From assembly GCA_027337125.1 (NCBI GenBank), contig GCA_027337125.1_3057.1: a stretch of DNA of 64,000 bases; one strand, given 5' to 3'. A model generated the notes under the pieces. It saw only the letters and a list, made by a program, of their open reading frames with translations, was not told the DNA's origin and searched no databases. Position 1 is the stretch's first letter, and each line of letters opens with the position of its first letter. This DNA is from a phage. Position numbers and translations under genes: made by a program. Shown piece by piece: positions 3,903-55,638 of the stretch.

Positions 3903-4244
3903 GACAAGAAACCGGGTCGCTACCGGTAAGTCGTCGGACTGATGTTCCCTGAGTAAGGAATTGCGTTAATAATCTTTGTGTTTATTGATGCCCTCTTACA
4001 TCACAGCAGAAACGGCGCACCGAATTATCGATTCGAGGAAATATCTTTGCCGTAAGCCGAGTAGCGTTTTTGACGGAACGTTCGGATATGGTCGAGATGT
4101 GGCCTTTTAAAAATATTGAGTAGCGTCAACTACTTAATAACCGGGTTCGAATCCCGGCGTTTCGTACAAACACTTGCCTTAGCAGGTGGAACCCGACAAG
4201 GTTGCCGCAAGGCTTAGCCCCGACCGAAAGGTTGGGGCTTTTTA
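3903..4244 (+). ncRNA. stable small RNAs downstream of tRNA-Arg (T4 species 1/2, rnaC/rnaD-like); boundaries uncertain
   Basis: No ORF; GC-richer structured segment with tRNA-like T-arm (GGTTCGAATCC) ending in hairpin plus T-run; matches T4 rnaC/rnaD position. Confidence 0.45.
4216..4244 (+). terminator. rho-independent terminator closing the tRNA/stable RNA unit
   Basis: AGCCCCGACC-GAAA-GGTTGGGGCT hairpin followed by TTTTT. Confidence 0.55.
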
Positions 4245-4450
4245 GTATCTAGGCCTTTCTGGACCTCTCTAGGCATCATTTAGTTTCTACCCTTTATAAT
4301 ATATTATCTTATCTTTTAATTGTCCCTCCCTGCCCTAGAATTCCCTAAAACTTTTTAAAAATTTTTTCACAAAACTATTTACATCCCTGTTCTTCCATGG
4401 TACTATACAACTATCAACTACTGATACAGAAAAACAACTTGGATAATAAA

Positions 4451-4714
4451 ATGGATAATTACGGCGAACTGTTCAACTTCTTTATGAAATGTGTTTCAGA
4501 AGATTTCGGTCGTACGGTGAATGATATTAAAGTTATCGGTCCTGACCATCCGATGTTTGAAACTTACGCAGTAATGGGTAATGAAGATGGTCAGTGGTAT
4601 ACTGTAAAGGTTGTGATTAACATGTTTACTGCTGAAGGTTATGTTAAACTGTCTTCTAAAGTTTACCACGATAACGACGAAATCGCAGAAGAATATTTCA
4701 ATAATATGAAATAA
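4451..4714 (+). CDS. hypothetical protein
   Basis: Start moved to MDNYGE: the ORF-track start lies inside the promoter -10; 88 aa. Confidence 0.55.
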   Translation: MDNYGELFNFFMKCVSEDFGRTVNDIKVIGPDHPMFETYAVMGNEDGQWYTVKVVINMFTAEGYVKLSSKVYHDNDEIAEEYFNNMK

Positions 4715-4782
4715 ATGTGTACAAACACCAAGGACGGTGTTATTATAGATTTATCAAAACAATCACAGAAGCGGAGAAATAA

Positions 4783-4959
4783 ATGACTACTTTAACTATT
4801 TGGTTTGACGAAAATGAAGAAACATACTGCGTGAACATTGATGAAAGTCCAATGCCTGACTTTGAATCTTCAGATAAGAAGTCGGTTATATCTTGGGCTG
4901 AAGGTTATAAAGCAGCAAAAGGCGATGTTAAAATAGTTTATAAACTCTTTGAAATATAA
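4783..4959 (+). CDS. hypothetical small protein (58 aa)
   Basis: ATG preceded by GGAG; fills intergenic gap; below ORF-track size cut-off. Confidence 0.4.
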   Translation: MTTLTIWFDENEETYCVNIDESPMPDFESSDKKSVISWAEGYKAAKGDVKIVYKLFEI

Positions 4960-5002
4960 TATTCTCACGGATTTTAAATCTTAATCAACCTAAGGAAATA
5001 CT

Positions 5003-8310: not shown

Positions 8311-8328
8311 AGGCCTATACTTAGGCCT
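8311..8328 (+). terminator. hairpin after internal-protein gene
   Basis: AGGCCT-atactt-AGGCCT palindromic stem followed by ATTT. Confidence 0.35.
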
Positions 8329-8485
8329 ATTTACATTCAAATAACATGGGAACAAGCTGGACCTCATGATTCTGTGAGGGATTCCCGCCAACCTGTAATA
8401 AGGTCGAGCCCAAGTGCGGTAATGGGTAAATACAGAAACGGACAATTCATGCGCCATGGAATGGCCCAAATTTAGAGATAACAAA

Positions 8486-14276: not shown

Positions 14277-14300
14277 TAGTCTCCTTCGGGAGACTTTTTT
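14277..14300 (+). terminator. rho-independent terminator
   Basis: AGTCTCC-TTCG-GGAGACT hairpin plus TTTTTT, immediately followed by an early promoter. Confidence 0.65.
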
Positions 14301-14310
14301 CATTTTACCA

Positions 14311-14340
14311 GTTTACTTTTCGTTTGAGCCGTGGTACTAT
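14311..14340 (+). promoter_or_regulatory. early promoter (GTTTAC / TACTAT) with conserved leader
   Basis: GTTTAC, 17-bp spacer, TGGTACTATACAACTATCAA block shared with four other promoters. Confidence 0.6.
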
Positions 14341-14368
14341 ACAACTATCAAATAAAGAGGAGAACATC

Positions 14369-14557
14369 ATGAAAATTGAAGCACTCAATCAAGAAGGAAA
14401 TATCTATGTCATCATTAATGGTGATTTTTTCGTCGACATGGATGAAGTCACTAGTGAAGAACTTGTAGAATTTCTTAAGAAACGCTATAATATGTGTGAT
14501 GAAGCTGCAACTCACATGGCGTGTGCAATATTCTCTCTTTCATATGTGGTGGAATAA
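14369..14557 (+). CDS. hypothetical protein
   Basis: ATG after AAAGAGGAG SD; ORF-track start lies in promoter. Confidence 0.5.
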
Positions 14558-15917: not shown

Positions 15918-16697
15918 ATGAATTATACTAAAGTATATAATAATTTAATTAAGAAAGGAAAACTCAGAAAATTAGATAAATCTAAATTAAATTTTTATAC
16001 GGAAAAGCATCATATTATTCCATCTTGTATTGGTGGTAATGATGATTCTGATAATCTAGTTTTATTAACAGCTAGAGAGCATTTTATAGCCCATTGGCTT
16101 TTAGCTAAAATTCATTATAATTCGCCTGGATTAATTTATGCATGGTGGTCATTTTATAATTTTGGAGAAGATTCTTTAGGAAGAAATCTCAAATTAACTT
16201 CAAGAGGATATCAGTTAGTTAGAGAAAAATTTTCAAAAATACATTCTAATACAATGAAAGAAATGTGGAAGTCTAATGAATACAGAGAAAAACGTTCGAT
16301 AACATTAAGTCTTCCTGAAATAAGGGCTAAAATTTCAGAATCCCAGTTAGAAGCACAAAACAAACCGGAAGTTAAAGAAAAAATATCTAAAGGGGTGAAA
16401 GCTGCTTTTAAACGACCGGGAGTTAAAGAAAAACACTCTGCTGCAGTCAAAAAATCTTTGAATAATTTTGAAACTAAAAAGAAACAATCAAATTCATCTA
16501 AAATTAGACAAAGAACTGGTAAACATTGGCAAGACTATGACTTACTTTATAAGTTATGGATTAAATTAAATAGACCTAAACGCGGGTCATTCGGAACTTA
16601 TATAAGTAAATTAGGATATCCAAAATCTAATTATCATCGATTGATTGTACAATTTAATGAAGATTATGAAAGGTCTAATAATGAAAACTGTAGTTAA
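15918..16697 (+). CDS. HNH homing endonuclease (MobD-like)
   Basis: HNH motif EKHHIIPSCIGGNDDSDNLVLLTAREHFIAH plus repeated NUMOD-like PEVKEK/PGVKEK motifs. Confidence 0.75.
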   Translation: MNYTKVYNNLIKKGKLRKLDKSKLNFYTEKHHIIPSCIGGNDDSDNLVLLTAREHFIAHWLLAKIHYNSPGLIYAWWSFYNFGEDSLGRNLKLTSRGYQLVREKFSKIHSNTMKEMWKSNEYREKRSITLSLPEIRAKISESQLEAQNKPEVKEKISKGVKAAFKRPGVKEKHSAAVKKSLNNFETKKKQSNSSKIRQRTGKHWQDYDLLYKLWIKLNRPKRGSFGTYISKLGYPKSNYHRLIVQFNEDYERSNNENCS

Positions 16698-17692: not shown

Positions 17693-17718
17693 AGGGAGCC
17701 TTCGGGCTCCCTTTTTTT
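17693..17718 (+). terminator. rho-independent terminator
   Basis: AGGGAGCC-TTCG-GGCTCCCT hairpin plus TTTTTTT. Confidence 0.65.
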
Positions 17719-17742: not shown

Positions 17743-17772
17743 GTTTACAAACATAAAGCTTTATGGTACTAT
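17743..17772 (+). promoter_or_regulatory. early promoter with conserved leader
   Basis: GTTTAC-17 bp-TACTAT followed by ACAACTATCAACTGATACGGATTTGGAGAA leader. Confidence 0.6.
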
Positions 17773-17806
17773 ACAACTATCAACTGATACGGATTTGGAG
17801 AACAAA

Positions 17807-18775
17807 ATGAAAACTGTAACTATCAATAAGGGTATCTACTTCGGTAAAGAAATCTCTGGAACTTTTGAGCTCTTAGGCGAATGGTTCCCAGATAATGCTC
17901 CGGTAGATGCACAAGGAGATGGTAAAGTTTTTGTTGAAATTGACGGTAAACGTCGCGGTGTTTGGGTTTACAAATCAGACATTTCATATGATGGTGTAAA
18001 AGTTGAAGAAGTTAAAGAATCATATGAAGATATGAAAACCCGCATTAATAAAAGATTTAATGTTATGGGAATGATGACGAATGGTATTATTAACGGAAAT
18101 ATTCGTTCATTAATTATCTCTGGTGCGGCGGGTATTGGTAAAACGTATTCTTTAGATAAAGCTTTAAATAAAGCAAATGATATTGGATACATTGAGTATA
18201 AAAGCATTAACGGTAAAATCTCTGGTATCGGTCTTTATGAACAGCTTTGGAATAATCGTGAAGAGAATTCTGTCCTTTTGATTGATGATGTGGATGTTTT
18301 CTCTGATATGGACATTCTTAATCTTCTAAAAGCTGCTCTGGACACTGGAGAGACCCGTAAAGTCTGCTGGAGCACTGCATCTTCTTACTTAGAAGAAAAA
18401 GGCATTGAGCGTGAGTTTGAATTTAAAGGAACGATTGTTTTTATCACAAACGTTGATATTGACCACGAATTAGACCGTGGTACTAAACTTGCTCCACATT
18501 TACAAGCATTAGTGTCCCGCTCAGTTTATTTAGATTTGGGTGTTCACACTAATGAAGAAATTATGGTCAGGGTTGAAGATGTTATTCTTTCAACTGACAT
18601 GATGCAAAAGCGCGGTCTTTCTGATGAAGAAACTTATAAAGCATTATCATGGATGAAAGTCAATGTTAATCGTTTACGCAATGTTTCACTGCGTACTGCA
18701 CTTTATCTTGCTGACTTTATTATGACCGACAAAAACGGTTGGGAAGAAATCGCTGAAACGGTATTGTTAAAATGA
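17807..18775 (+). CDS. AAA+ family ATPase
   Basis: Walker A SGAAGIGKTYS, Walker B LLIDDVD, sensor-like ITN; ATG after GGAGAA; ORF-track upstream extension runs through terminator and promoter. Confidence 0.6.
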   Translation: MKTVTINKGIYFGKEISGTFELLGEWFPDNAPVDAQGDGKVFVEIDGKRRGVWVYKSDISYDGVKVEEVKESYEDMKTRINKRFNVMGMMTNGIINGNIRSLIISGAAGIGKTYSLDKALNKANDIGYIEYKSINGKISGIGLYEQLWNNREENSVLLIDDVDVFSDMDILNLLKAALDTGETRKVCWSTASSYLEEKGIEREFEFKGTIVFITNVDIDHELDRGTKLAPHLQALVSRSVYLDLGVHTNEEIMVRVEDVILSTDMMQKRGLSDEETYKALSWMKVNVNRLRNVSLRTALYLADFIMTDKNGWEEIAETVLLK

Positions 18776-19491
18776 AAAAATATTTTACTATCTATAAAAC
18801 TGAAATATTAAATTTAAAGACTGGCATTAAGAAATATTATTATGGTCGACATATAACTAATAATATCAATGATTCGTATGTTGGTAGTGGAAATTATATA
18901 GAACGCGTAAAAGTGTCAAATGACCATATATTATCAAAAACTGTTTTAGAAGTTTTTGATAATTATGATAAAATGGTACAATCTGAAATATTATATATCA
19001 TGGCAGGCAAATTAAAATATGGTAAAAACTGTGTTAATCTGTCGTATGGGGGTGAAGGAGGAAAAGTTGCGGATGAAACTAGGATAAAATGTAAAAAGCA
19101 TTCCATAAATTTATGGAAAAATCCTAATCATATACAGCATATGAAGAAAAAGATGAAAGAGGTCACATCTACACCAGAAGCTAAATTAAACACTTCAATA
19201 AAAACTTCACAACGATATAAGGACCCAGTTTTTGTTAGAAAAGTTAGTAATATTATTAAAAAGGCACTAAGCAATCCTACGGTAAAAGAAAAGCATATTA
19301 ATGGAATTAAAGCTGCAAAGCGTTCTCATTTAACTATATGGCAGTATGAAGATGAATTATTCGAGCTTTGGAAAGAAACTAAATATGGATGGAGAAAATT
19401 TACAAAGGAAGCTATAAAACACGGGTATCCAAATGAACCGTATCGTAGTATGGTATCAACTTTTCAGAAAAGACATTTAGAAGAATCGTAA
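18772..19491 (+). CDS. GIY-YIG homing endonuclease (Seg-like)
   Basis: IYK...YYYGRH...YVGSG GIY-YIG motif; NUMOD-like PTVKEKH; ATGA overlap with AAA+ gene. Confidence 0.75.
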   Translation: MKKYFTIYKTEILNLKTGIKKYYYGRHITNNINDSYVGSGNYIERVKVSNDHILSKTVLEVFDNYDKMVQSEILYIMAGKLKYGKNCVNLSYGGEGGKVADETRIKCKKHSINLWKNPNHIQHMKKKMKEVTSTPEAKLNTSIKTSQRYKDPVFVRKVSNIIKKALSNPTVKEKHINGIKAAKRSHLTIWQYEDELFELWKETKYGWRKFTKEAIKHGYPNEPYRSMVSTFQKRHLEES

Positions 19492-19878: not shown

Positions 19879-19931
19879 GTTTACAAGACTGTTCCTCTGT
19901 GGTACTATACAACTATCAACTACGGAGGAAC
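19879..19931 (+). promoter_or_regulatory. early promoter inside inverted repeat whose 3' arm covers the SD
   Basis: GTTTAC-17-TACTAT; arms GTTCCTC / GAGGAAC (the latter is the SD of the 19937 gene). Confidence 0.6.
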
Positions 19932-19936
19932 ACAAA

Positions 19937-20464
19937 ATGAACGCTAAAGATATTTTCAACCTGGTAAATTACAACGACGGTAAATTTAAATCTGAAGCAC
20001 AAAGCAAGTTCTTTAATGACATCTCAATCGGAGGTGAAATCACGGTTGATGGAGGACAAATTTACAAATCCCGTTGGAATTGGATCGTTATTATTGATGA
20101 GATTGGTATTATAGAAATTTATAAGAATACGAATAAAAATCGTACATTACACTGGTCTCGTGATACTAACGAACAGTACAAAAAGGATAAAGCATCTAAA
20201 TTATCTCGTGTAACTCAAGAAGATATTGAGTTCATCAAGAAAGATATTTTGATGTATGATAACTTAATTGCTGAAGAGCAAGCTGTTATTGATAAATTTG
20301 ATGAGATTAAAGCTTCTCGTGAAATTCCTGATTTTATGAAAGAATCAGTAAATGAACGATACACTCTCATTTCAGAGCGTATTGAAACTTACAAAAAGCA
20401 AAGAGCTGAACGCCAAAATACTCTTCGGAAGTTTGAAGAACGGTTAAAGACGGTACTCGCATAA
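19937..20464 (+). CDS. hypothetical protein
   Basis: 175-aa ORF, C-terminal coiled-coil character. Confidence 0.55.
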   Translation: MNAKDIFNLVNYNDGKFKSEAQSKFFNDISIGGEITVDGGQIYKSRWNWIVIIDEIGIIEIYKNTNKNRTLHWSRDTNEQYKKDKASKLSRVTQEDIEFIKKDILMYDNLIAEEQAVIDKFDEIKASREIPDFMKESVNERYTLISERIETYKKQRAERQNTLRKFEERLKTVLA

Positions 20465-23921: not shown

Positions 23922-23973
23922 TTTAAAGCCAAGGATGGCTCGGAGCATAAATCATTAACCAAGTGAGAAGAAA

Positions 23974-24216
23974 ATGACCAAGCGTAAAGAATATATGGAG
24001 ATTGCTGAAAAGGCAGTCCGTGAATTAGCAATAGCGTATTATAATGAACACGGTAAATTTCCTGATAGATACAGCGTGCTTAAATCTGCTTTAACTCGTT
24101 CATATAAAAATATGCTATCAGAAGTAAGTGATATTATATACAAACATAAAGAACAAACAGGTCAAAGTCTTGATTACGACGAGACTTTTAAACAAGTACT
24201 AGGAATTAAGGAATAA
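23974..24216 (+). CDS. hypothetical protein
   Basis: 80-aa ORF. Confidence 0.5.
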
Positions 24217-25816: not shown

Positions 25817-26290
25817 ATGTTATTGACTGGCAAATTATATAAAGAAGAAAAACAGAAATTTTATGATGCACAAAACGGTAAATGCTTAATTTGCCAACGA
25901 GAATTAAATCCTGATGTTCAAGCTAATCACCTTGACCATGACCATGAATTAAATGGACCGAAAGCTGGAAAGGTACGTGGGTTGCTTTGTAATCTCTGTA
26001 ATGCGGCAGAAGGTCAAATGAAACATAAATTTAATCGTTCTGGCTTAAAAGGACAAGGCGTTGATTATCTTGAATGGTTAGAAAATTTACTTACTTATTT
26101 AAAATCCGATTACACCCAAAATAATATTCACCCTAACTTTGTTGGAGATAAATCAAAGGAATTTTCTCGTTTAGGAAAAGAGGAAATGATGGCCGAGATG
26201 CTTCAAAGAGGATTTGAATATAATGAATCTGACACCAAAACACAGTTAATAGCTTCATTTAAGAAGCAGCTTAGAAAGAGTTTAAAATGA
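25817..26290 (+). CDS. 49: endonuclease VII (Holliday junction resolvase)
   Basis: 157 aa, zinc-binding CLICQ...C and HLDHDHE motifs; matches recalled T4 gp49. Confidence 0.9.
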   Translation: MLLTGKLYKEEKQKFYDAQNGKCLICQRELNPDVQANHLDHDHELNGPKAGKVRGLLCNLCNAAEGQMKHKFNRSGLKGQGVDYLEWLENLLTYLKSDYTQNNIHPNFVGDKSKEFSRLGKEEMMAEMLQRGFEYNESDTKTQLIASFKKQLRKSLK

Positions 26291-27108
26291 ATGTAGTATA
26301 TAAACTATCATTTGTTAATAGAATTAATGCTAAAACCCCGCCATATTATTACATTGGAAGTAAAACTAATTGCACTTTTGATGGAACGAATATTATTGAT
26401 AAAAATGGTAAATTTTATTATTCGTCTTCGTCATCTTCTGAATTTCAAAACGCTCTATTGAAAGAAACGCCGAAAGTTGAAATATTATATTTTCAATTAG
26501 TCGGAGATGAACAAATAACTAGCATTGAAGCTGAATTTCAAAAGAATGTAGAAAAAGATGTATGGAATAAAGAGTATTTTAATTTAGCATATGCTGATGG
26601 CCAATTTACGACATATGGTATTTCTCCTTCTAAAGAAACTAGAGAAAAGCAATCAATAACCATGATTAAAAGAAATCGTAATAAAGGCAAAAATCATGGA
26701 TTTTATGGAAAGCATCATACTAATTTAGCCAGAAAGAAAATATCAGAAGCTTCTAAAAAATACTGGAAAGAAAATCCACATCGTGGATTTTCGCATACAA
26801 AGGAAGCTAAAATTAAAATTGGAATTTCATCTTCTATCAGGCATAAAGGAAGTGGAAATCCGATGTATGGTGTAAAACCTTGGAAAACTCCGAGAGCAAT
26901 TAAATCTGGTACTTGTATATTATGGTTAAAATACGCAGAAATTTTATATGATTATTTAGGTCCAGATTTTAAAAGTAAATCATCTGTTTTTGTGGATTTA
27001 AACTTACCGAAATTTAGAATTGATAATTTCATCAAAAGGTTTAAAATGGGTTGGAACCCATATTTAGACGAAGAATTTCAAAAGGATAAATTAGAATTAT
27101 GTCTTTAG
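26287..27108 (+). CDS. GIY-YIG-type homing endonuclease-like protein
   Basis: VYKLSF...YYIGSK GIY-YIG-like N-terminus, NUMOD-like NHGFYGKHH and GNPMYG motifs; overlaps nrdD start. Confidence 0.6.
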   Translation: MNVVYKLSFVNRINAKTPPYYYIGSKTNCTFDGTNIIDKNGKFYYSSSSSSEFQNALLKETPKVEILYFQLVGDEQITSIEAEFQKNVEKDVWNKEYFNLAYADGQFTTYGISPSKETREKQSITMIKRNRNKGKNHGFYGKHHTNLARKKISEASKKYWKENPHRGFSHTKEAKIKIGISSSIRHKGSGNPMYGVKPWKTPRAIKSGTCILWLKYAEILYDYLGPDFKSKSSVFVDLNLPKFRIDNFIKRFKMGWNPYLDEEFQKDKLELCL

Positions 27109-28916
27109 AGAAAGATGTTTTAAATTTTATTTCAAATAAAGATAAAGAATTAAATACCGAAAATGCCAACAAAGATTCTCGTGTCTTTCCAACAAAAAGA
27201 GATTTAATGGCCGGTATTGTTTCTAAACATATCGCTTGTAGTATTCTTCCAAGCCATATTGTAAATGCTCATAATGCCGGGTTAATTCATTTTCATGATT
27301 TAGATTACAGTATATCATTGCCTTTTACTAATTGTTGTTTAGTAGATTTAAAAGGAATGCTTGAGAACGGATTTAAGCTTGGTAATGCACAGATTGAAAC
27401 TCCTAAATCAATCGGTGTTGCTACTGCAATTATGGCACAAATTACTGCACAGGTTGCTTCCCATCAATACGGCGGAACGACTTTTGCTAATGTAGATAAA
27501 GTACTTTCTCCTTATGTTAAACGCACCTATGCAAAACATATTGAGGATGCAGAAAAATGGCAAATCGCTGATGCGTTAAATTATGCTCAATCTAAAACAG
27601 AAAAAGACGTATACGATGCATTCCAAGCTTATGAATATGAAGTAAATACTCTCTTTAGTTCAAACGGACAAACGCCTTTTGTAACAATTACATTTGGTAC
27701 GGGAACTGACTGGACTGAACGAATGATTCAGAAAGCAATTCTGAAAAATCGTATTAAAGGTCTTGGTCGTGATGGGATAACTCCTATTTTCCCTAAGCTT
27801 GTTATGTTTGTTGAAGAAGGTGTTAATCTTTATAAAGACGATCCGAACTATGATATTAAGCAGCTTGCTTTAGAGTGTGCAAGCAAAAGGATGTATCCTG
27901 ATATTATTTCAGCTAAGAACAATAAAGCTATCACTGGTTCATCTGTTCCTGTTTCTCCAATGGGTTGTCGTAGTTTCTTGAGCATATGGAAAGATTCGAC
28001 TGGCAATGAAATTCTTGATGGACGTAATAATCTCGGTGTTGTAACACTGAATCTTCCTCGTATTGCGTTAGATTCTTATATTGGAACACAGTTCAATGAA
28101 CAGAAATTTACTGAATTATTCAATGAACGAATGGATTTGTGTTTTGAAGCTTTGATGTGTAGAATTAGTTCCTTAAAAGGAGTTAAAGCGACTGTTGCTC
28201 CTATTCTTTACCAAGAAGGCGCATTCGGGGTTCGTCTTAAACCTGATGACGACATAATTGAGTTATTTAAAAACGGTAGAAGTTCAGTGTCTTTAGGATA
28301 CATTGGTATTCACGAATTGAATATTCTTGTCGGTCGTGATATTGGACGAGAAATTTTAACTAAAATGAATGCTCATCTTAAACAGTGGACTGAAAGAACC
28401 GGATTTGCTTTTAGTTTATATTCGACTCCTGCTGAAAACCTTTGTTATCGCTTCTGTAAACTTGATACAGAGAAATATGGAAGTGTAAAAGATGTTACCG
28501 ATAAAGGCTGGTACACTAACAGTTTCCATGTTTCAGTAGAAGAAAATATTACTCCGTTTGAAAAGATTTCTCGTGAAGCTCCATATCATTTCATTGCGAC
28601 AGGTGGTCACATTTCTTATGTTGAACTTCCTGATATGAAAAATAACTTAAAAGGTCTTGAGGCCGTGTGGGATTATGCCGCACAACATTTAGATTATTTT
28701 GGTGTTAATATGCCAGTAGATAAATGTTTTACATGTGGAAGTACCCATGAAATGACTCCTACTGAAAACGGATTTGTTTGTTCTATTTGCGGAGAAACTG
28801 ATCCTAAAAAGATGAACACAATAAGAAGAACGTGTGGTTATTTGGGAAATCCGAACGAACGCGGATTTAATCTCGGTAAAAATAAAGAAATCATGCATAG
28901 GGTTAAACACCAATGA
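27099..28916 (+). CDS. nrdD: anaerobic ribonucleotide reductase NrdD (uninterrupted)
   Basis: 605 aa, C-terminal glycyl-radical motif RTCGYLG and zinc ribbon CFTCG...CSICG. Confidence 0.95.
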   Translation: MSLEKDVLNFISNKDKELNTENANKDSRVFPTKRDLMAGIVSKHIACSILPSHIVNAHNAGLIHFHDLDYSISLPFTNCCLVDLKGMLENGFKLGNAQIETPKSIGVATAIMAQITAQVASHQYGGTTFANVDKVLSPYVKRTYAKHIEDAEKWQIADALNYAQSKTEKDVYDAFQAYEYEVNTLFSSNGQTPFVTITFGTGTDWTERMIQKAILKNRIKGLGRDGITPIFPKLVMFVEEGVNLYKDDPNYDIKQLALECASKRMYPDIISAKNNKAITGSSVPVSPMGCRSFLSIWKDSTGNEILDGRNNLGVVTLNLPRIALDSYIGTQFNEQKFTELFNERMDLCFEALMCRISSLKGVKATVAPILYQEGAFGVRLKPDDDIIELFKNGRSSVSLGYIGIHELNILVGRDIGREILTKMNAHLKQWTERTGFAFSLYSTPAENLCYRFCKLDTEKYGSVKDVTDKGWYTNSFHVSVEENITPFEKISREAPYHFIATGGHISYVELPDMKNNLKGLEAVWDYAAQHLDYFGVNMPVDKCFTCGSTHEMTPTENGFVCSICGETDPKKMNTIRRTCGYLGNPNERGFNLGKNKEIMHRVKHQ

Positions 28917-29752
28917 ATTATGATAGATTTTATCCTTGCGATTTTGTGAATGATAAATTATCTTTAATATTTGAAGAAAATAATGATTTACTATTGTCAT
29001 ATGTTGATTTGATAACAAAAAATTATAATAATCCTAAAATAAAAGGAAAAACGGAAGCACATCACGTGCTTCCCAAATCTATATTTCCTGAATATAAAAC
29101 AGATAAATGGAATATTGTTAATTTGTCATATTATGACCACGCGTTAGCTCATTACTATTTAGCTAAAACAAGTAATAGTAAAATGTGTTATGCCTTTCAT
29201 AGAATGATAAACTCGAATACCGATAGATTTAATACAAATGAATTGGATGAAATTCTTAAATTGTATTCCAGCGAAAAGGAATTATTTCACCGCTCTATGT
29301 CAAAATTATCGAAAAATATATGGAAGGATGACGATTTTAGAAAAAGACATAGAGAACTAACTAAGTTAGCAATGCAAAAACCTGAAGTTAGAAATAAAAC
29401 TTTATTAAATTTGTCAAATGCAATGAAAACTGATGAAGTTAGAAATAAAATTTCCAGGCTAACTAAGTTAGCAATGCAAAAACCTGAAGTAAAAGAAAAA
29501 CATAGAAATTCATTGAAGTTGGCGTATGCAAATCCTGAGGTTATGAAAAGGAAACATCAGCGTCTTCGAGAAAAATATACTCTTAATTTATTTGGCGCAT
29601 ATAAAGATGGTGTTCTTTTAAAAACATTTAATTATATACCAGACGCAGCAAAATATTTTAATATTTCTAGCAAAGGAAATATTTTAAAATGTTTAAATGG
29701 CGAACGTAAAAGTGTTGAAGGCTATAATTGGAAATATATAAATGAATTATGA
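28913..29752 (+). CDS. HNH homing endonuclease (MobC-like) between nrdD and nrdG
   Basis: HNH motif EAHHVLPKS...YDHALAH; tandem NUMOD-like repeats; N-terminus duplicates nrdG start. Confidence 0.75.
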   Translation: MNYDRFYPCDFVNDKLSLIFEENNDLLLSYVDLITKNYNNPKIKGKTEAHHVLPKSIFPEYKTDKWNIVNLSYYDHALAHYYLAKTSNSKMCYAFHRMINSNTDRFNTNELDEILKLYSSEKELFHRSMSKLSKNIWKDDDFRKRHRELTKLAMQKPEVRNKTLLNLSNAMKTDEVRNKISRLTKLAMQKPEVKEKHRNSLKLAYANPEVMKRKHQRLREKYTLNLFGAYKDGVLLKTFNYIPDAAKYFNISSKGNILKCLNGERKSVEGYNWKYINEL

Positions 29753-30873: not shown

Positions 30874-30946
30874 TCTCGCATTCTGTATATTACCATTCTA
30901 AGCTATCGTTCCCTTCTTATCATTCCCTAAAAATTTTCACAAAGTT

Positions 30947-30976
30947 GTTTACAAGAAGTTCAAACTGTGGTATTAT
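30947..30976 (+). promoter_or_regulatory. early promoter
   Basis: GTTTAC-17 bp-TATTAT with ATTCCCTAAAAATTTT upstream element. Confidence 0.55.
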
Positions 30977-42183: not shown

Positions 42184-44880
42184 ATGAAAGAATTTTATAT
42201 CTCTATTGAAACAGTCGGAAATAACATTGTTGAACGTTATATTGATGAAAACGGAAAGGAACGTACTCGTGAAGTAGAATATCTTCCGACTATGTTTAGG
42301 CATTGTAAGGAAGAGTCAAAATACAAAGACATCTATGGTAAAAACTGTGCTCCTCAAAAATTTCCATCAATGAAAGATGCTCGAGATTGGATGAAGCGAA
42401 TGGAAGACATCGGTCTCGAAGCTCTCGGTATGAACGATTTTAAACTCGCTTATATCAGTGATACATATGGTTCAGAAATTGTTTATGACCGAAAATTTGT
42501 TCGTGTAGCTAACTGTGACATTGAGGTTACTGGTGATAAATTTCCTGACCCAATGAAAGCAGAATATGAAATTGATGCTATCACTCATTATGATTCAATT
42601 GACGATCGTTTTTATGTTTTCGACCTTTTGAATTCAATGTATGGTTCAGTATCAAAATGGGATGCAAAGTTAGCTGCTAAGCTTGACTGTGAAGGTGGTG
42701 ATGAAGTTCCTCAAGAAATTCTTGACCGAGTAATTTATATGCCATTTGATAATGAGCGTGATATGCTCATGGAATATATCAATCTCTGGGAACAGAAACG
42801 ACCTGCTATTTTTACTGGTTGGAATATTGAGGGATTTGACGTTCCGTATATCATGAATCGCGTTAAAATGGTTCTCGGTGAACGTAGTATGAAACGTTTC
42901 TCTCCAATCGGTCGAGTAAAATCTAAACTAATTCAAAATGTGTACGGTAGCAAAGAAATTTATTCTATTGATGGCGTATCTATTCTTGATTATTTAGATT
43001 TGTATAAGAAATTCGCATTTACTAATTTACCGTCATTCTCTTTGGAATCAGTTGCTCAACATGAAACCAAAAAAGGTAAATTACCGTACGACGGTCCTAT
43101 TAATAAACTTCGTGAGACTAATCATCAACGATACATTAGTTATAACATCATTGACGTAGAATCAGTTCAAGCAATTGATAAAATTCGTGGGTTTATCGAT
43201 CTAGTTTTAAGTATGTCTTATTATGCTAAAATGCCTTTTTCTGGTGTAATGAGTCCTATTAAAACTTGGGATGCTATTATTTTTAACTCGTTGAAAGGTG
43301 AACATAAGGTTATTCCTCAACAAGGTTCGCACGTTAAACAGAGTTTTCCGGGTGCATTTGTGTTTGAACCTAAACCAATTGCTCGTCGATATATTATGAG
43401 TTTTGACTTGACGTCTCTGTATCCGAGTATTATTCGTCAGGTTAACATTAGTCCTGAGACTATTCGTGGGCAGTTTAAAGTTCATCCAATTCATGAATAT
43501 ATTGCAGGAACAGCTCCTAAACCGAGTGATGAATATTCTTGTTCTCCGAATGGATGGATGTATGATAAGCATCAAGAAGGTATCATTCCAAAGGAAATCG
43601 CTAAAGTATTTTTCCAGCGTAAAGACTGGAAAAAGAAAATGTTCGCTGAAGAAATGAATGCCGAAGCTATTAAAAAGATTATTATGAAAGGCGCAGGGTC
43701 TTGTTCAACTAAACCTGAAGTTGAACGATATGTTAAGTTCAGTGATGATTTCTTAAATGAACTATCGAATTACACCGAATCCGTTCTCAATAGTCTGATT
43801 GAAGAATGTGAAAAAGCAGCTACACTTGCTAACACAAATCAACTTAACCGTAAAATTCTTATTAACAGTCTTTATGGTGCTCTTGGTAATATTCATTTCC
43901 GTTACTATGATTTGCGAAATGCTACTGCTATCACAATTTTCGGCCAAGTCGGTATTCAGTGGATTGCTCGTAAAATTAATGAATATCTGAATAAAGTATG
44001 CGGAACTAATGGTGAAGATTTCATCGCAGCAGGTGATACTGATTCGGTATATGTTTGCGTAGATAAAGTTATTGAAAAAGTTGGTCTTGACCGATTCAAA
44101 GAGCAGAACGATTTAGTTGAATTCATGAATCAGTTCGGTAAGAAAAAGATGGAACCTATGATTGATGTTGCATATCGTGAGTTATGTGATTATATGAATA
44201 ACCGCGAGCATCTGATGCATATGGACCGTGAAGCTATTTCTTGCCCTCCACTTGGTTCAAAGGGCGTAGGTGGATTTTGGAAAGCGAAAAAGCGTTATGC
44301 TCTGAACGTTTATGATATGGAAGATAAGCGATTTGCTGAACCGCATCTAAAAATCATGGGTATGGAAACTCAGCAGAGTTCAACACCAAAAGCAGTGCAA
44401 GAAGCTCTCGAAGAAAGTATTCGTCGTATTCTTCAGGAAGGTGAAGAGTCTGTCCAAGAATACTACAAGAACTTCGAGAAAGAATATCGTCAACTTGACT
44501 ATAAAGTTATTGCTGAAGTAAAAACTGCGAACGATATAGCGAAATATGATGATAAAGGTTGGCCAGGATTTAAATGCCCGTTCCATATTCGCGGTGTGCT
44601 AACTTATCGTCGAGCTGTTAGTGGTCTAGGTGTAGCTCCAATTTTGGATGGAAATAAGGTAATGGTTCTTCCATTACGTGAAGGAAATCCATTTGGTGAT
44701 AAGTGCATTGCTTGGCCATCGGGTACAGAACTTCCAAAAGAAATTCGTTCTGATGTGCTATCTTGGATTGACCACTCAACTTTGTTCCAAAAATCGTTTG
44801 TTAAACCGCTTGCAGGTATGTGTGAATCGGCTGGCATGGACTATGAAGAAAAAGCTTCGTTAGACTTCCTGTTTGGCTGA
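42184..44880 (+). CDS. 43: DNA polymerase gp43 (family B, with 3'-5' exonuclease)
   Basis: 898 aa; exo motifs and polymerase motifs (YPSII, KINSLYG, GDTDS region) recognisable. Confidence 0.95.
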   Translation: MKEFYISIETVGNNIVERYIDENGKERTREVEYLPTMFRHCKEESKYKDIYGKNCAPQKFPSMKDARDWMKRMEDIGLEALGMNDFKLAYISDTYGSEIVYDRKFVRVANCDIEVTGDKFPDPMKAEYEIDAITHYDSIDDRFYVFDLLNSMYGSVSKWDAKLAAKLDCEGGDEVPQEILDRVIYMPFDNERDMLMEYINLWEQKRPAIFTGWNIEGFDVPYIMNRVKMVLGERSMKRFSPIGRVKSKLIQNVYGSKEIYSIDGVSILDYLDLYKKFAFTNLPSFSLESVAQHETKKGKLPYDGPINKLRETNHQRYISYNIIDVESVQAIDKIRGFIDLVLSMSYYAKMPFSGVMSPIKTWDAIIFNSLKGEHKVIPQQGSHVKQSFPGAFVFEPKPIARRYIMSFDLTSLYPSIIRQVNISPETIRGQFKVHPIHEYIAGTAPKPSDEYSCSPNGWMYDKHQEGIIPKEIAKVFFQRKDWKKKMFAEEMNAEAIKKIIMKGAGSCSTKPEVERYVKFSDDFLNELSNYTESVLNSLIEECEKAATLANTNQLNRKILINSLYGALGNIHFRYYDLRNATAITIFGQVGIQWIARKINEYLNKVCGTNGEDFIAAGDTDSVYVCVDKVIEKVGLDRFKEQNDLVEFMNQFGKKKMEPMIDVAYRELCDYMNNREHLMHMDREAISCPPLGSKGVGGFWKAKKRYALNVYDMEDKRFAEPHLKIMGMETQQSSTPKAVQEALEESIRRILQEGEESVQEYYKNFEKEYRQLDYKVIAEVKTANDIAKYDDKGWPGFKCPFHIRGVLTYRRAVSGLGVAPILDGNKVMVLPLREGNPFGDKCIAWPSGTELPKEIRSDVLSWIDHSTLFQKSFVKPLAGMCESAGMDYEEKASLDFLFG

Positions 44881-44892
44881 TAGAATAAATCT

Positions 44893-44914
44893 AGGGACCT
44901 CCAGGTCCCTTTTT
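44893..44914 (+). terminator. rho-independent terminator
   Basis: AGGGACC-tcca-GGTCCCT hairpin plus TTTTT. Confidence 0.6.
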
Positions 44915-44997
44915 CATACAAGTAATATAAATCTATACTTATGAAAAAGAGATGATTCTGGACCCTTTGGATTCCCTAAAAATTTTTTCACAAAACT

Positions 44998-45027
44998 GTT
45001 TACATCCCTGTTCTTCTATGGTACTAT
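44998..45027 (+). promoter_or_regulatory. early promoter, part of duplicated promoter-leader cassette
   Basis: About 67 bp nearly identical to the cassette at 4361-4427 (GTTTACATCCCTGTTCTTC.ATGGTACTATACAACTATCAACTACTGATAC). Confidence 0.6.
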
Positions 45028-45064
45028 ACAACTATCAACTACTGATACGGATTTGGAGAATGAA

Positions 45065-45301
45065 ATGAAAATTGTTATGGGATGCTTAGCAGTTTGTTTA
45101 GTTGCATTAGCAGCAGTTCCATTTGTTAGTGTTGAAAATGATACCCAACCTGTGATTGAATCTAGCACTGTTATTCACACTAATGGTAAAATATCAGTTA
45201 AAATTGATGATAATCTTCATGTGAATACAAATGGATCTTTAGGTGTGCAAATAGGTAATACCTGCATAAGCACTATTGGAGTAATTACTACTTGCATTTG
45301 A
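45065..45301 (+). CDS. small secreted or membrane protein
   Basis: ATG after GGAGAATGAA; signal-like hydrophobic N-terminus. Confidence 0.5.
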   Translation: MKIVMGCLAVCLVALAAVPFVSVENDTQPVIESSTVIHTNGKISVKIDDNLHVNTNGSLGVQIGNTCISTIGVITTCI

Positions 45302-45311
45302 GGAAATTATT

Positions 45312-45692
45312 ATGAAAATCGCTATTTTGGTTATTGCATTAGGTCTTACTGGTTGTGTAGCTCAAGGACCGGTAGTAAATCAGTCTGATGTAGGAAAAAT
45401 TGTAAACTGTTCAAGCAAGTTTTATAATCCTAATGTCAAGTGTTATAAAGAAGCTCCAAAACAGACAGTAGAACAAATGCAGGCGAATTTTGACGAAGCT
45501 ATTCGTCCAGATGAATCTGCCCAAGCATATCGTAATTCAGATGTGATTACACGTGAAGAAAAAATTGAAAACTACTGTGCTGAACTTTGGGCAAATTGGG
45601 CTAATAATTACCAATGGCGTACCGGTAAAAATGCTCCGATGGAGTATGTAGTAAATTCTTATAATTCATGCGTAAAAAATTTGACTAAGTGA
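45312..45692 (+). CDS. putative lipoprotein
   Basis: Signal peptide with lipobox LTGC. Confidence 0.5.
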   Translation: MKIAILVIALGLTGCVAQGPVVNQSDVGKIVNCSSKFYNPNVKCYKEAPKQTVEQMQANFDEAIRPDESAQAYRNSDVITREEKIENYCAELWANWANNYQWRTGKNAPMEYVVNSYNSCVKNLTK

Positions 45693-46104: not shown

Positions 46105-46845
46105 ATGATTAATGATTCTTTGACAGTTGAAGAAATCCGTCTTCATTTGGGAATTGCATTAAAGGAAAAAGATTTCGTAATTGATAAAACTGGTGTTAAA
46201 ACTATTGAAATTATTGGCGCATCATTTGTAGCAGATGAACCGTTTATTTTTGGCGCTCTTAATGATGAATACATTCAGCGTGAACTTGAATGGTACAAGT
46301 CTCAAAGTCTGTTTGTTAAAGATATTCCAGGCGAAACGCCAAAGATTTGGCAACAGGTAGCATCTTCTAAAGGTGAAATTAACTCGAATTATGGTTGGGC
46401 TATCTGGTCAGAAGATAACTATGCCCAGTATGATATGTGTTTAGCTGAACTTGGTCAAAATCCTGATTCTCGCCGCGGTATCATGATTTATACTCGTCCA
46501 TCCATGCAGTTTGACTACAACAAAGATGGTATGTCAGATTTCATGTGTACGAATACAGTACAGTACCTGATTCGTGATAAGAAAGTCAATGCAGTAGTAA
46601 GCATGCGTTCAAATGACGTGGTCTTTGGATTCCGTAATGATTATGCATGGCAAAAATACGTACTAGATAAATTAGTATCTGATTTGAATGCAGGTGATTC
46701 AACTCGTCAGTATAAAGCAGGTTCCATTATATGGAATGTTGGAAGCCTTCATGTGTATTCTCGTCATTTTTATTTGGTTGACCATTGGTGGAAAACTGGC
46801 GAAACTCATATTGCGAAAAAAGATTATAACGGTGAGTGGAAATGA
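46105..46845 (+). CDS. 42: dCMP hydroxymethylase gp42
   Basis: 246 aa, thymidylate-synthase-like fold; matches recalled T4 gp42. Confidence 0.95.
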   Translation: MINDSLTVEEIRLHLGIALKEKDFVIDKTGVKTIEIIGASFVADEPFIFGALNDEYIQRELEWYKSQSLFVKDIPGETPKIWQQVASSKGEINSNYGWAIWSEDNYAQYDMCLAELGQNPDSRRGIMIYTRPSMQFDYNKDGMSDFMCTNTVQYLIRDKKVNAVVSMRSNDVVFGFRNDYAWQKYVLDKLVSDLNAGDSTRQYKAGSIIWNVGSLHVYSRHFYLVDHWWKTGETHIAKKDYNGEWK

Positions 46846-47684
46846 TTCAATTCGTAATTCCAAGCTATCAACGTGTAGGGGCAGTTTCTGCCCTTGATAT
46901 GTTTCCGACTGATTATGAACCTCATATTGTAGTACGTAAACACGAAGAAAAAGCTTATTATGACGCTTATGGGTCTAGAGCTAAAATTATAACTATTCCT
47001 GATGATGTTAATGGAATTGCTGGAACTCGTAAAGCAATTACTGATATGTATGCAGGTCAACGAATCTGGATGATTGACGATGATACTACGATTCGTATGA
47101 GTTCAATACGAAAGAGAGACGATAAACGGCGCGTAGATAAAATTAATCAATTAACTCGTGAACAGTTCTATGAATTGATTCAATACGTTGAAGATGCCAT
47201 GGATTGCGGGTATTATCATGGCCATGCTCGTCTACCAATTTTTAAAATTACTTCATCTTGGGGTAATTATCGTGAAAACTCATATGGATTCACGAATACG
47301 TGGTATGACCTCGGAAAACTTACGACAGAACAAATTGGGTATGGAAAAATTGATTTATGCGAAGATATGTATGCATTTCTCAATTTAATTAATCAAGGTT
47401 ATCCGCATTTGGCCTTGTTCAAATATCTAGTTGTATCTGGAAAATCACACGCTCCCGGTGGGTGTAGTTCAATTCGTAGTAATTCTAAACATAATAGAGC
47501 GCTTGAGCAAATCAATAGAGAGTTTCCAGAGCAAGCTCGTTGGAAAACTTCTAATATTGAAAAACGAAAATCGTTGGGTGAAGAAGATGAACCATTAAAG
47601 GTTCTTCGCATGTGTGTTTCGCGTAAAGAAAAATCAGAAGCATTTCATAAGTTTAATGCTATTCATCCAATAGCAGTTGATTAA
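46842..47684 (+). CDS. putative HMC-DNA glycosyltransferase at the beta-gt locus (beta-alpha-gt-like, unverified)
   Basis: ORF between 42 and uvsX where T4 carries beta-gt, but sequence unlike recalled T4 beta-gt; T2/T6 carry a different transferase here. Confidence 0.45.
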   Translation: MIQFVIPSYQRVGAVSALDMFPTDYEPHIVVRKHEEKAYYDAYGSRAKIITIPDDVNGIAGTRKAITDMYAGQRIWMIDDDTTIRMSSIRKRDDKRRVDKINQLTREQFYELIQYVEDAMDCGYYHGHARLPIFKITSSWGNYRENSYGFTNTWYDLGKLTTEQIGYGKIDLCEDMYAFLNLINQGYPHLALFKYLVVSGKSHAPGGCSSIRSNSKHNRALEQINREFPEQARWKTSNIEKRKSLGEEDEPLKVLRMCVSRKEKSEAFHKFNAIHPIAVD

Positions 47685-49295: not shown

Positions 49296-50723
49296 GTGGT
49301 AGAAATTATTCTTTCTCATCTCATATTTGATCAAGCTTATTTTTCAAAAGTTTGGCCATATATGGATTCAGAATATTTTGAAAGTGGTCCAGCTAAAAAT
49401 ACATTCAAATTAATTAAATCTCATGTTAATGAGTACCATAGCGTTCCATCTATTAATGCGTTAAATGTTGCATTAGAAAATAGTTCATTTACTGAAACAG
49501 AATATTCTGGTGTAAAAACACTTATTTCGAAACTAGCCGATTCTCCAGAAGACCACAGCTGGTTAGTAAAAGAAACAGAAAAATATGTTCAGCAAAGGGC
49601 GATGTTTAATGCTACGTCTAAAATAATTGAAATTCAAACTAATGCTGAGCTTCCTCCGGAAAAACGAAATAAGAAAATGCCGGATGTTGGTGCTATTCCT
49701 GACATCATGCGCCAAGCATTATCAATTTCATTTGATAGTTACGTTGGCCATGATTGGATGGATGACTACGAAGCACGTTGGCTATCTTATATGAATAAAG
49801 CTCGTAAGGTTCCATTTAAACTCAAAATTCTAAATAAAATTACTAAAGGCGGAGCTGAGACTGGAACACTGAACGTTTTAATGGCTGGTGTTAACGTTGG
49901 TAAGTCATTAGGTCTATGTTCATTGGCAGCAGATTATTTACAACTCGGTCATAATGTTCTTTACATTTCAATGGAAATGGCAGAAGAAGTCTGTGCTAAA
50001 CGTATTGACGCTAATATGCTCGATGTTTCTCTTGATGACATTGATGATGGGCATATTTCTTATGCTGAGTATAAAGGAAAAATGGAAAAATGGCGTGAGA
50101 AATCTACTCTCGGCCGTTTAATCGTTAAACAGTATCCTACTGGCGGAGCAGACGCTAATACATTTAGATCGCTTTTAAACGAATTAAAGCTCAAGAAGAA
50201 TTTTGTTCCAACAATCATTATTGTTGACTATCTAGGTATTTGTAAATCTTGCCGCATCAGAGTTTACTCAGAAAATAGTTACACAACTGTTAAAGCTATC
50301 GCAGAGGAATTGCGTGCTCTGGCTGTTGAAACAGAAACTGTTCTTTGGACTGCAGCGCAGGTTGGTAAACAAGCTTGGGATTCTTCCGATGTTAACATGA
50401 GCGATATTGCAGAATCCGCCGGTCTTCCAGCAACAGCCGATTTTATGCTTGCGGTCATTGAAACCGAGGAGTTAGCAGCTGCTGAACAACAACTCATTAA
50501 GCAAATCAAATCACGATATGGTGATAAGAATAAATGGAATAAGTTTTTGATGGGTGTTCAAAAAGGAAATCAGAAATGGGTAGAAATTGAACAAGATTCT
50601 ACTCCAACTGAAGTGAACGAAGTAGCAGGTTCACAGCAGATTCAGGCTGAACAGAACCGCTATCAAAGAAACGAATCTACTCGAGCTCAGTTAGATGCTT
50701 TGGCGAATGAATTAAAATTTTAG
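49296..50723 (+). CDS. 41: replicative helicase gp41 (DnaB-like)
   Basis: 475 aa, GTG start (MVEIILSHLIFDQAYF...), Walker A GVNVGKS. Confidence 0.95.
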   Translation: MVEIILSHLIFDQAYFSKVWPYMDSEYFESGPAKNTFKLIKSHVNEYHSVPSINALNVALENSSFTETEYSGVKTLISKLADSPEDHSWLVKETEKYVQQRAMFNATSKIIEIQTNAELPPEKRNKKMPDVGAIPDIMRQALSISFDSYVGHDWMDDYEARWLSYMNKARKVPFKLKILNKITKGGAETGTLNVLMAGVNVGKSLGLCSLAADYLQLGHNVLYISMEMAEEVCAKRIDANMLDVSLDDIDDGHISYAEYKGKMEKWREKSTLGRLIVKQYPTGGADANTFRSLLNELKLKKNFVPTIIIVDYLGICKSCRIRVYSENSYTTVKAIAEELRALAVETETVLWTAAQVGKQAWDSSDVNMSDIAESAGLPATADFMLAVIETEELAAAEQQLIKQIKSRYGDKNKWNKFLMGVQKGNQKWVEIEQDSTPTEVNEVAGSQQIQAEQNRYQRNESTRAQLDALANELKF

Positions 50724-50760
50724 TTTACAAGCTGACAAGACTATGGTATAGTAGTCTTGT
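50723..50760 (+). promoter_or_regulatory. early promoter with -10 bracketed by 8-bp inverted repeat
   Basis: GTTTAC-17-TATAGT; arms ACAAGACT / AGTCTTGT. Confidence 0.6.
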
Positions 50761-50781
50761 TGGTTAAATGAGGAGATCGTT

Positions 50782-50965: not shown

Positions 50966-51208
50966 ATGCACATTGTTTTATTTAAACCTACTCCGTATAA
51001 TGTCAAGAAAAATACTCAATTCAAAGCACTTGTTGCAGATACGTGGGAATTGGTGTTAGATATTCCAGCAGAAGAAAGTCCTCCATTTGGTCGAGTGGAA
51101 TTTATTAAGTTTGCTGTGCGCCCTACGAAGCGACAGATTCGCCAATGCAAAAGATACTTTCGTAAAATCGTCAAGTTAGAGAAACAGTTATTGATGCTAG
51201 TAAAATAG
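50966..51208 (+). CDS. hypothetical basic protein (61.4 position; candidate anti-toxin factor)
   Basis: ATG after GAGGATAAT; 80 aa, Lys/Arg-rich C-terminus; sits in dmd-sp island. Confidence 0.5.
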   Translation: MHIVLFKPTPYNVKKNTQFKALVADTWELVLDIPAEESPPFGRVEFIKFAVRPTKRQIRQCKRYFRKIVKLEKQLLMLVK

Positions 51209-51210
51209 TA

Positions 51211-51252
51211 GTTTACAAGCTGATAGAGTTGTGTTATAGTAATTCTATCAGC
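51211..51252 (+). promoter_or_regulatory. early promoter with -10 bracketed by 9-bp inverted repeat
   Basis: GTTTAC-17-TATAGT; arms GCTGATAGA / TCTATCAGC. Confidence 0.6.
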
Positions 51253-51271
51253 TAATCGTGGAGAAAAGAAA

Positions 51272-51526
51272 ATGATGCTAGTTAATAGAGAATATCAGTT
51301 TAAATCAGAAGAAGATTTGGAAAAATTCGCGAGTGGTTGTGAACTGAATAGACGCACAGCTAAAGTCATAGGATTAAAACCCTTTACAGTTCTAGATTGT
51401 GAAGTTTCTAAATTCCGCAGAGGGTGTTCTATTAGCGGTCATGCTCTGGTTGATGGGAACACATTTTTCTTTGTTTTTAGCGTCAGAGAACTTTTATTGA
51501 TTAACGAACTTGAGGAAATAAAATAG
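51272..51526 (+). CDS. hypothetical protein
   Basis: 84-aa ORF with GGAG SD. Confidence 0.5.
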   Translation: MMLVNREYQFKSEEDLEKFASGCELNRRTAKVIGLKPFTVLDCEVSKFRRGCSISGHALVDGNTFFFVFSVRELLLINELEEIK

Positions 51527-53282: not shown

Positions 53283-53330
53283 GCGTCGTCCTCCTTTAAA
53301 TTAATATTTATCGCAAATTTTACAAAATTT

Positions 53331-53376
53331 GTTTACTTTCTCAGCTTGTTATGGTATTATAAAATAAACTGCTGAG
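53331..53376 (+). promoter_or_regulatory. early promoter inside inverted repeat whose 3' arm covers the SD
   Basis: GTTTAC-17-TATTAT; arms CTCAGC / GCTGAG, the latter within GCTGAGGA SD. Confidence 0.55.
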
Positions 53377-53385
53377 GATAATATA

Positions 53386-54725
<1,340 letters not shown>

Positions 54726-55632: not shown

Positions 55633-55638
55633 ATTCAG

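Follow-up and report, generated by a model that had tools for sequence, protein, structure and literature searches.

The phage and the repeat-bearing loci

The window, which is the whole stretch of 64,000 nucleotides analysed here, was collinear with the reverse complement of the T4 genome (AF158101) at 89-97% identity, window position 3110 corresponding to T4 71965 and position 64000 to T4 7063. It follows that T4 early transcription runs along the + strand of the window. The window was likewise collinear with more than 500 Tequatrovirus records, and a 3-kb piece around the repeat matched 788 phage records at no more than 97% identity, nearly all of them Tequatrovirus. By its sequence the phage is a Tequatrovirus, a T4/T2-like coliphage. 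The gene order runs from the tRNA cluster (8 tRNAs) through e, regB, tk, rI, nrdC.x, nrdD, 55 and a-gt to 47, 46, 45, 44, 62, regA, 43, imm, 42, uvsX and 41, and then through 61, dam, 56, soc, mod and dda, ending at dexA.

A 21-mer, TGGTACTATACAACTATCAAC, was exact at 4398, 17764, 19900 and 45019 in the window. The first-pass annotation had given this block as identical in five promoters; it is exact in four, and the copy at 14332 has one mismatch (last base A). The promoter cassettes that carry it and the features around them are:

4216..4239 (+), intrinsic terminator with a GAAA loop and T-run, 139 nt ahead of the e.8 promoter
4340..4350 (+), far-upstream motif ATTCCCTAAAA, repeated at 30922 and 44971
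4356..4427 (+), long repeat copy 1, the e.8 early promoter cassette: A/T-rich tract 4356-4376; -35 ATTTAC 4377-4382; spacer 4383-4397; TGn plus -10 TGGTACTAT 4398-4406; putative +1 A4413 (numbering from PMC1524935)
4451..4714 (+), gene e.8, 87 aa, phrog_2678, with copy 1 as its promoter and a leader at 4413-4450
14278..14295 (+), terminator with a UUCG loop, immediately ahead of the mobD.5 promoter
14311..14352 (+), mobD.5 early promoter; 21-mer with one mismatch 14332-14352; ATG 14369
17693..17712 (+), UUCG-loop terminator, abutting the nrdC.10 promoter
17743..17784 (+), nrdC.10 early promoter, 'early promoter 54.4' of T4; exact 21-mer 17764-17784; ATG 17807
19879..19920 (+), nrdC.8 early promoter, without an upstream terminator; exact 21-mer 19900-19920; ATG 19937
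30922..30975 (+), related early promoter of the gene 55.6 region, with ATTCCCTAAAA plus TTTTCACAAAGTTGTTTAC; its -10/start region differs
44893..44910 (+), terminator after gene 43, a different hairpin, 88 nt ahead of the post-43 promoter
44977..45048 (+), long repeat copy 2, the post-gene-43 (imm.1-region) early promoter cassette: -35 GTTTAC 44998-45003; TGn plus -10 45019-45027; putative +1 A45034; nrdC.10-type leader from 45041
45065..45301 (+), ORF78, signal-peptide-like, 78 aa, phrog_4189, between the cassette and imm.1
45312..45692 (+), imm.1, which in T4 is fused directly to the cassette

The near-identity of 67 bp first described between the e.8 and post-43 copies was borne out and proved slightly longer, as 4356-4427 and 44977-45048 agreed at 70 of 72 nt without gaps. 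The two mismatches are A versus G at 4377 and C versus T at 4396. Both are private to this phage: the relatives all have G at -36 of the e.8 promoter, and all carry C at the position equivalent to T45015 of the post-43 copy. The motif said to precede both copies was likewise present, with ATTCCCTAAAA at 4340 and 44971 and a third copy at 30922; 10 nt inserted in copy 1, CTTTTTAAAA (4351-4360), intervene between this motif and the repeat. The related upstream element noted near 30926 was recovered at 30922-30953.

The repeats lie in T4-type early promoters

The window holds 20 early promoters, the five copies and 15 others, all on the + strand and with the fixed geometry GTTTAC-N14-RTG-nTAnnnT. 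The sites are laid out as an A/T-rich tract (often TTTCACAAAgtT), GTTTAC, 14 nt, RTG and nTAnnnT, followed by about 7 nt, an ATCAAC-like block, ...CTGAGGAG... and the ATG. Joint consensus sequences for promoter and ribosome-binding site were reportedly given by Liebig and Rüger in 1989. An A/T-rich UP-like tract, AAAAATTTTTTCACAAAACT and variants of it, lies directly upstream of the -35 element in the e.8, post-43 and nrdC.10 copies; the mobD.5 copy has a T-rich version, and the tract of the nrdC.8 copy is weaker. The start codons (4451, 14369, 17807, 19937 and 45065) stand 22-38 nt past the putative +1, with GGAG or GGAT before them. By T4 homology, the genes served are e.8 (4451-4714), mobD.5 (14369-14557), nrdC.10 (17807-18775) and nrdC.8 (19937-20464), and the post-43 copy is preceded by gene 43 (42184-44880) and followed by the 78-aa ORF and then imm.1.

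The T4 early consensus comprises GTTTAC at -36 to -31, TGn, and T-12, A-11 and T-7, together with an A-rich UP-like tract at -40 to -44 (Nolan et al. 2006, PMC1524935), and these promoters have been reviewed as 'über UP/-35/TGn/-10 promoters' with additional consensus regions (Hinton 2010, PMC2988021). The five copies share geometry, motifs and strand with the T4 early promoters (Pe) and occupy orthologous loci (e.8, mobD.5, nrdC.10, nrdC.8 and imm.1); they are of the 'über' UP/-35/TGn/-10 type and, like T4 Pe, have extra conserved positions around +1. In T4 itself, the exact 21-mer stands ahead of e.8, nrdC.10, nrdC.8 and imm.1. In the T4 record U76612 the name 'early promoter 54.4' is given to the nrdC.10 copy and a terminator is marked immediately ahead of it, and the e.8 and post-43 copies have been annotated by other groups as predicted early promoters in the records of relatives. 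A genome-wide map of T4 start sites was not found in the searchable literature, and we infer promoter activity and the +1 positions, as their basis is consensus and homology. At every sequence-level point of comparison the five copies belong to the T4 early-promoter class, and the repeat pair is, on these grounds, a pair of ordinary T4-type host sigma-70 early promoters, located before e.8 and imm.1.

Nothing essential differs from T4 Pe, except that the post-43 copy of this phage would drive an extra 78-aa ORF before imm.1 and that the e.8 copy has A for the conserved G at -36 (4377). This A4377 replaces the highly conserved -36 G of GTTTAC in the e.8 promoter, which was G in 6/6 relatives; the private substitution might weaken the promoter.

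Unmodified host sigma-70 RNA polymerase would use the cassettes in the first minutes of infection. The 5' half would provide the A/T-rich UP-like tract, GTTTAC at -36 to -31, a 15-nt spacer and the extended -10 TGGTACTAT, and the 3' half the conserved discriminator/start region ACAACT/ATCAAC, an unstructured leader of 30-40 nt, a GGAG-type Shine-Dalgarno sequence and the ATG.

The invariant block is mostly promoter

The first-pass annotation described the 21-mer as a -10 plus an initial transcribed block, that is, as a leader shared among the promoters. This description did not stand. In T4 numbering, with GTTTAC at -36 to -31, the 21-mer spans -15 to +6, so that only ATCAAC, six bases, would be transcribed and most of the block is promoter. 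It is made up of the extended -10 with the hexamer TACTAT, the discriminator ACAACT and the six transcribed bases, the discriminator/ITS segment being ACAACTATCAAC. No match to the 21-mer arose in 100 dinucleotide-preserving shuffles.

It is accordingly quite unlikely that the selected unit is a shared cis-acting RNA leader, either a factor-binding site or a structured regulatory 5' UTR, whose AUCAACUAC-containing 5' ends would be bound by a phage or host factor. An ATCAAC(TAC)(TGATAC) block does follow the putative start in several copies, ...CTACTGAGGAG is common to many early leaders, and RegB is known to target GGAG Shine-Dalgarno sequences in T4 (AF158101 annotation); the GGAG sequences here are presumably RegB-sensitive as well. 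However, a mere 6 nt of the invariant 21-mer is transcribed by T4 numbering, the five leaders diverge past +6, their predicted folding was no better than that of shuffles (z-scores of -0.4 to +0.8), and no Rfam family match to the cassette was found. On the shuffle-level folding and the lack of an Rfam match on the cassette, a structured RNA leader and a known RNA family were rejected.

There is a similarly small chance that the invariant -15 to +6 block marks a co-regulated sub-class recognised by a factor, or that a dedicated protein drives exchange among the cassettes. For a sub-class, the candidate factor could be the early-promoter shut-off mechanism or promoter-specific Alt stimulation. 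Early promoters are shut off about 3 min after infection by a mechanism described as unexplained (PMC2988021).

Conservation among T-even phages

The homologous 45 kb was compared from T4, sb3, T2, T6, PST and ime09, giving seven genomes with the window. The exact 21-mer was present at e.8, nrdC.10, nrdC.8 and post-43 in 7/7 genomes (28/28 copies), and the mobD.5 copy varied at its 3' end only. The first-pass annotation had considered the cassettes mobile, whereas all five occupy orthologous sites in T4, T2, T6, PST, sb3 and ime09. The cassettes have thus been kept at fixed positions among T-even phages and are not recent insertions.

Four other early promoters (10485, 15123, 22862 and 30947), compared through their BLAST orthologs, were equally conserved, including their spacers. 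Per-locus conservation of the 21-mer is therefore uninformative about a subfamily, and subfamily-specific constraint deduced from it was rejected, the four unrelated early promoters being just as invariant.

The post-43 promoter is a mosaic of its paralogs

The post-43 locus was typed in 21 genomes, which were the seven compared genomes, 11 GenBank phages and 3 IMG/VR contigs. Twelve extra GenBank phages were sampled, of which G29 was missed by the extraction pattern; the exact-pattern search of IMG/VR for post-43 alleles gave the 3 contigs only, too few by themselves. The spacers of e.8 (ATCCCTGTTCTTCCA), nrdC.10 (AAGCATAAAGCTTTA) and nrdC.8 (AAGACyGTTCCTCTG) were locus-specific and stable among genomes. 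The post-43 spacer was polymorphic, and its alleles were copies of the paralog spacers:

e.8-type post-43 spacer, 7/21 genomes
nrdC.8-type post-43 spacer, 7/21 genomes
AAGAC+TTCTTCCA chimera, 5/21 genomes, T4 among these
reciprocal ATCCC+TTCCTTTG chimera, 2/21 genomes

The four combinations of the two half-spacers were all present, and recombination within 15 nt is therefore required. The post-43 leader also changes independently, being nrdC.10-type (TGATACGGATTTGGAG), nrdC.8-type (TACGGAGGAACACAAAATGAA) or hybrid, and behind the nrdC.8-type leader the T2-type ORF was always found. PST has an nrdC.10 leader that is an e.8/nrdC.10 hybrid, and the upstream tract of its e.8 copy is post-43-like, without the 10-nt insertion and with the CATT of the post-43 type.

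The proposal of the first-pass annotation that the repeats are recombination substrates was supported, since the post-43 copy combines paralog-type segments in a mosaic among the 21 genomes and gene indels end within the cassette. On these haplotypes, the mosaic is direct evidence of exchange inside the cassettes. We consider it highly probable that the cassettes are T4-type early promoters of a Tequatrovirus whose near-identical pair came about by sequence exchange between paralogous cassettes.

The pair would be alike through tract exchange of paralogous cassettes rather than through one recent mobile insertion. At least one ectopic (non-allelic) transfer between paralogous cassettes would have made the alternative alleles, and allelic recombination of co-infecting phages would then shuffle them at the post-43 locus. 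The four-gamete pattern needs one or a few ectopic events, and most of the shuffling could be allelic recombination between phages. Homology for the exchange would be supplied by the invariant -15 to +6 block and the shared upstream tract, and short homologies, the smallest being ATGAAAAT at the start codon, would also be the endpoints of single-gene indels beside the cassette. The pathway between the cassettes appears to be general homologous recombination. Shuffling of the segment between the 40-kb pair, as had been suggested, did not survive scrutiny, the segment holding genes 43, 44, 45, 46, 47, 55 and others. A crossover between the direct repeats would delete 40 kb with essential replication genes, and therefore non-crossover exchange alone would survive.

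Convergent selection alone, in which strong T4 early promoters are driven to one optimum with no transfer between loci, is a highly unlikely explanation for the pair. The strong consensus over about 90 nt common to the 20 early promoters and the tight purifying selection on orthologous promoters agree with it, yet the spacer between -35 and -10 has no consensus: identity averaged 5.0 of 15 (sd 2.1) when the 20 early promoters of the window were compared in 190 pairs, and the e.8/post-43 pair reached 14/15, thus far beyond what the shared promoter consensus gives. Moreover, the post-43 alleles match the e.8 or nrdC.8 spacers at 6/6 differing positions, both reciprocal chimeras exist, and leader segments too switch paralog type.

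A small mobile element, MITE-like or a site-specific att-type repeat, that inserted copies around the genome is extremely unlikely: several dispersed copies do lie in direct orientation and the T6 RefSeq annotation calls the post-43 copy 'attL', but every copy is orthologous in position in seven genomes, the similarity boundaries vary among pairs and genomes, the crossover points are scattered through the cassette, no integrase or transposase was seen in this virulent phage, no terminal inverted repeats or target duplications were noticed on inspection by eye, and the name 'attL' seems to come from automatic detection of direct repeats. On the orthologous positions and variable boundaries, a mobile element or att site was rejected.

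Exchange between paralogous cassettes thus remains the preferred reading, and what the mosaic adds is modest: it is population-level evidence that recombination among paralogs has made a mosaic of the promoter between gene 43 and imm.1, with four haplotype combinations in the 15-nt spacer and three alternative, interchangeable downstream states. It supports the published idea that repeated regulatory sequences, beside homing endonucleases, give crossover points for accessory-gene turnover. It strengthens the case for cassette-mediated exchange but does not amount to a novel class of system. When genes are engineered in behind T4 early promoters, ectopic exchange among the copies is to be expected.

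Terminators and comparison with PeSL cassettes

UUCG-loop terminators had been placed directly ahead of several cassettes by the first-pass annotation. Such adjacency was found for 2/5, the promoters at 14311 and 17743, and not for the other three copies. The UUCG hairpin at 14278-14295 lies 16 nt ahead of the -35 element and that at 17693-17712 lies 31 nt ahead, and the terminator scan found none upstream of the 19879 copy. One unrelated early promoter (55673) is also abutted by a UUCG terminator (55637-55658). As a terminator stands directly before some cassettes, the gene downstream would be an insulated early transcription unit, the 'PeSL' architecture.

PeSL (promoter-early stem-loop) cassettes were described in RB49/phi1 (Arbiol et al. 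2010, PMC2839356), in a model where crossovers fall between -10 and the ATG (PMC2839356), and were extended to the pairs PST/T4 and nt-1/KVP40 (Comeau, Arbiol & Krisch 2014, PMC4122927). In T4/PST they comprise TTTACW-N17-TAYWAT, an A/T-rich upstream tract, and a 3' Shine-Dalgarno sequence with start codon (Comeau et al. 2014, PMC4122927). The present copies have TTTACA-N17-TACTAT in 4/5 cases and TTTACT-N17-TACTAT in the mobD.5 copy (14311), both of which fit TTTACW. The PeSL-type reading offered at first therefore agrees with the cassette as extended to the T4/PST pair, by promoter consensus, A/T-rich tract and Shine-Dalgarno/ATG.

Shared with PeSL are the A/T-rich tract, the sigma-70-like TTTACW-N17-TAYWAT promoter, the 3' Shine-Dalgarno sequence and ATG, a stem-loop just upstream in some copies, the intergenic position among small accessory ORFs, chimeric cassettes, and ORF indels ending between -10 and the ATG. 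In contrast, the stem-loop here abuts 2/5 copies, lies farther off in two others and is missing from the fifth; 40 kb of essential genes separate the members of the long pair, which would leave conversion only and no module excision; and enrichment of indels at the cassettes was not detectable in the window. The cassette type is already known, a regulatory element described as PeSL for T4/PST in 2014. The outcome is chiefly confirmation, in that a reader of the sequence alone recovered the T4 early-promoter/PeSL architecture; that interpretation was essentially right, and overstated the shared 'leader', the mobility and the terminator adjacency.

An analogy can also be drawn with the morons of lambdoid phages and with integron gene cassettes, which are single accessory genes with their own promoter and often a terminator. 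Moron-like insertions between conserved genes are found here at 51211-51526 and 53331-53946. Unlike in those systems, there is no integrase or attC site here, and gain and loss appears to proceed via general homologous recombination of the phage on repeated regulatory sequence.

Gene gain and loss beside the cassettes

The slot between the post-43 cassette and imm.1 had three states among the 21 genomes. It was empty in 11, including T4, T6 and PST; it held ORF78 in 7, the window included; and it held an unrelated 83-aa ORF in T2, RB68 and Ptacy1496. ORF78 was missing in T4, T6, PST, sb3 and ime09, and T2 had the unrelated 83-aa ORF instead. Two or more spacer types were found with each of the three states. 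ORF78 and the T2 ORF have the right junction GAGGAAATTATT-ATG(imm.1) in common, and in T4 the leader is joined straight to the imm.1 ATG. At both ends of the insertion, the ORF78 start and the imm.1 start, ATGAAAAT(T/C)G is repeated. Homologues of ORF78 were found in 326 phage records, one per record; the listed coordinates in these 326 records fit a single locus, and ORF78 at other loci, as expected from cassette-borne transposition, was not found.

Two extra 'promoter plus ORF' units were present relative to T4, one at 51189-51519 with a goF-like 84-aa ORF and promoters at 51211 and 51526, and one at 53317-53859 with a 186-aa ORF and a promoter at 53331. The goF-like 84-aa ORF (phrog_2980; window 51201-51526) sits between 61.4 and sp, and its promoter region is 70% identical to 50713-50776. 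The 186-aa ORF (phrog_8706; window 53331-53946) is an insertion relative to T4 that carries its own early promoter and lies immediately upstream of dam. Its Pfam similarity to the DpnII (GATC) restriction endonuclease was weak and below threshold (E = 0.0025), and it adjoins the GATC methylase gene.

Clear cases of indels at cassettes are found at 51189-51519 and 53317, in the post-43 slot and in the e.7 slot (4714). In the last of these, the slot after e.8 (e.7 in T4; 4714-4986), the small ORF differs between nearly all the genomes compared: a 58-aa ORF here, and ORFs of other sizes in T4/T6, sb3 and ime09. An early-like promoter (4718-4746) precedes this small ORF.

The suggestion that variable modules are bounded by cassettes fits these individual junctions, but indel endpoints were not significantly enriched at cassettes overall. 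When the 113 gene junctions of the window were tested against six relatives, endpoints fell at 7/16 cassette junctions and 30/97 others (OR 1.7, p = 0.39), with rough gene calls and the post-43 junction mis-binned. A count by hand with that junction corrected gave about 8/18 versus 29/95, for which significance is not expected. Most indels were homing-endonuclease ORFs or introns. The extra-gene cases would fit the PeSL model, and the general association appears weak in the window.

Other observations in the window and in related records

In automatic annotation these repeats receive wrong labels, either 'attL' or small ORFs. In T6 (NC_054907 24507-24546; L008 3008-3047) an 'attL' misc_feature is laid on the post-43 cassette, and in T2 (PV648363; L007 1489-1590 and 43043-43150) small 'hypothetical protein' CDSs lie over the e.8 and post-43 promoters.

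Compared with T4, the phage is without ipII and denV (879 bp; window 8325-8348), nrdC.2 and nrdC.3 (about 1.2 kb; 23965-23999) and the nrdD intron with I-TevII (1036 bp; 27634-27637). A TAGT-family glycosyltransferase at 46836-47684 stands in place of T4 b-gt and segA; its location matches that of the T2/T6-type beta-glucosyl-HMC-alpha-glucosyltransferase in the annotations of T2, T6 and ime09, so DNA glucosylation in this phage would be T2/T6-like. Homing-endonuclease-like ORFs were seen at 18772-19491 (phrog_314), 26287-27108 (NUMOD3), 28913-29752 (NUMOD-like) and 15918-16697 (weak HNH), and the one at 26287-27108, between 49 and nrdD, is missing in 6/6 relatives compared. In-frame tandem repeats of 51 nt (GCAATGCAAAAACCTGAAGTTAGAAATAAA...) occur at 29369-29504, in the mobC-like ORF, and at 16353-16433, in the HNH-like endonuclease ORF.
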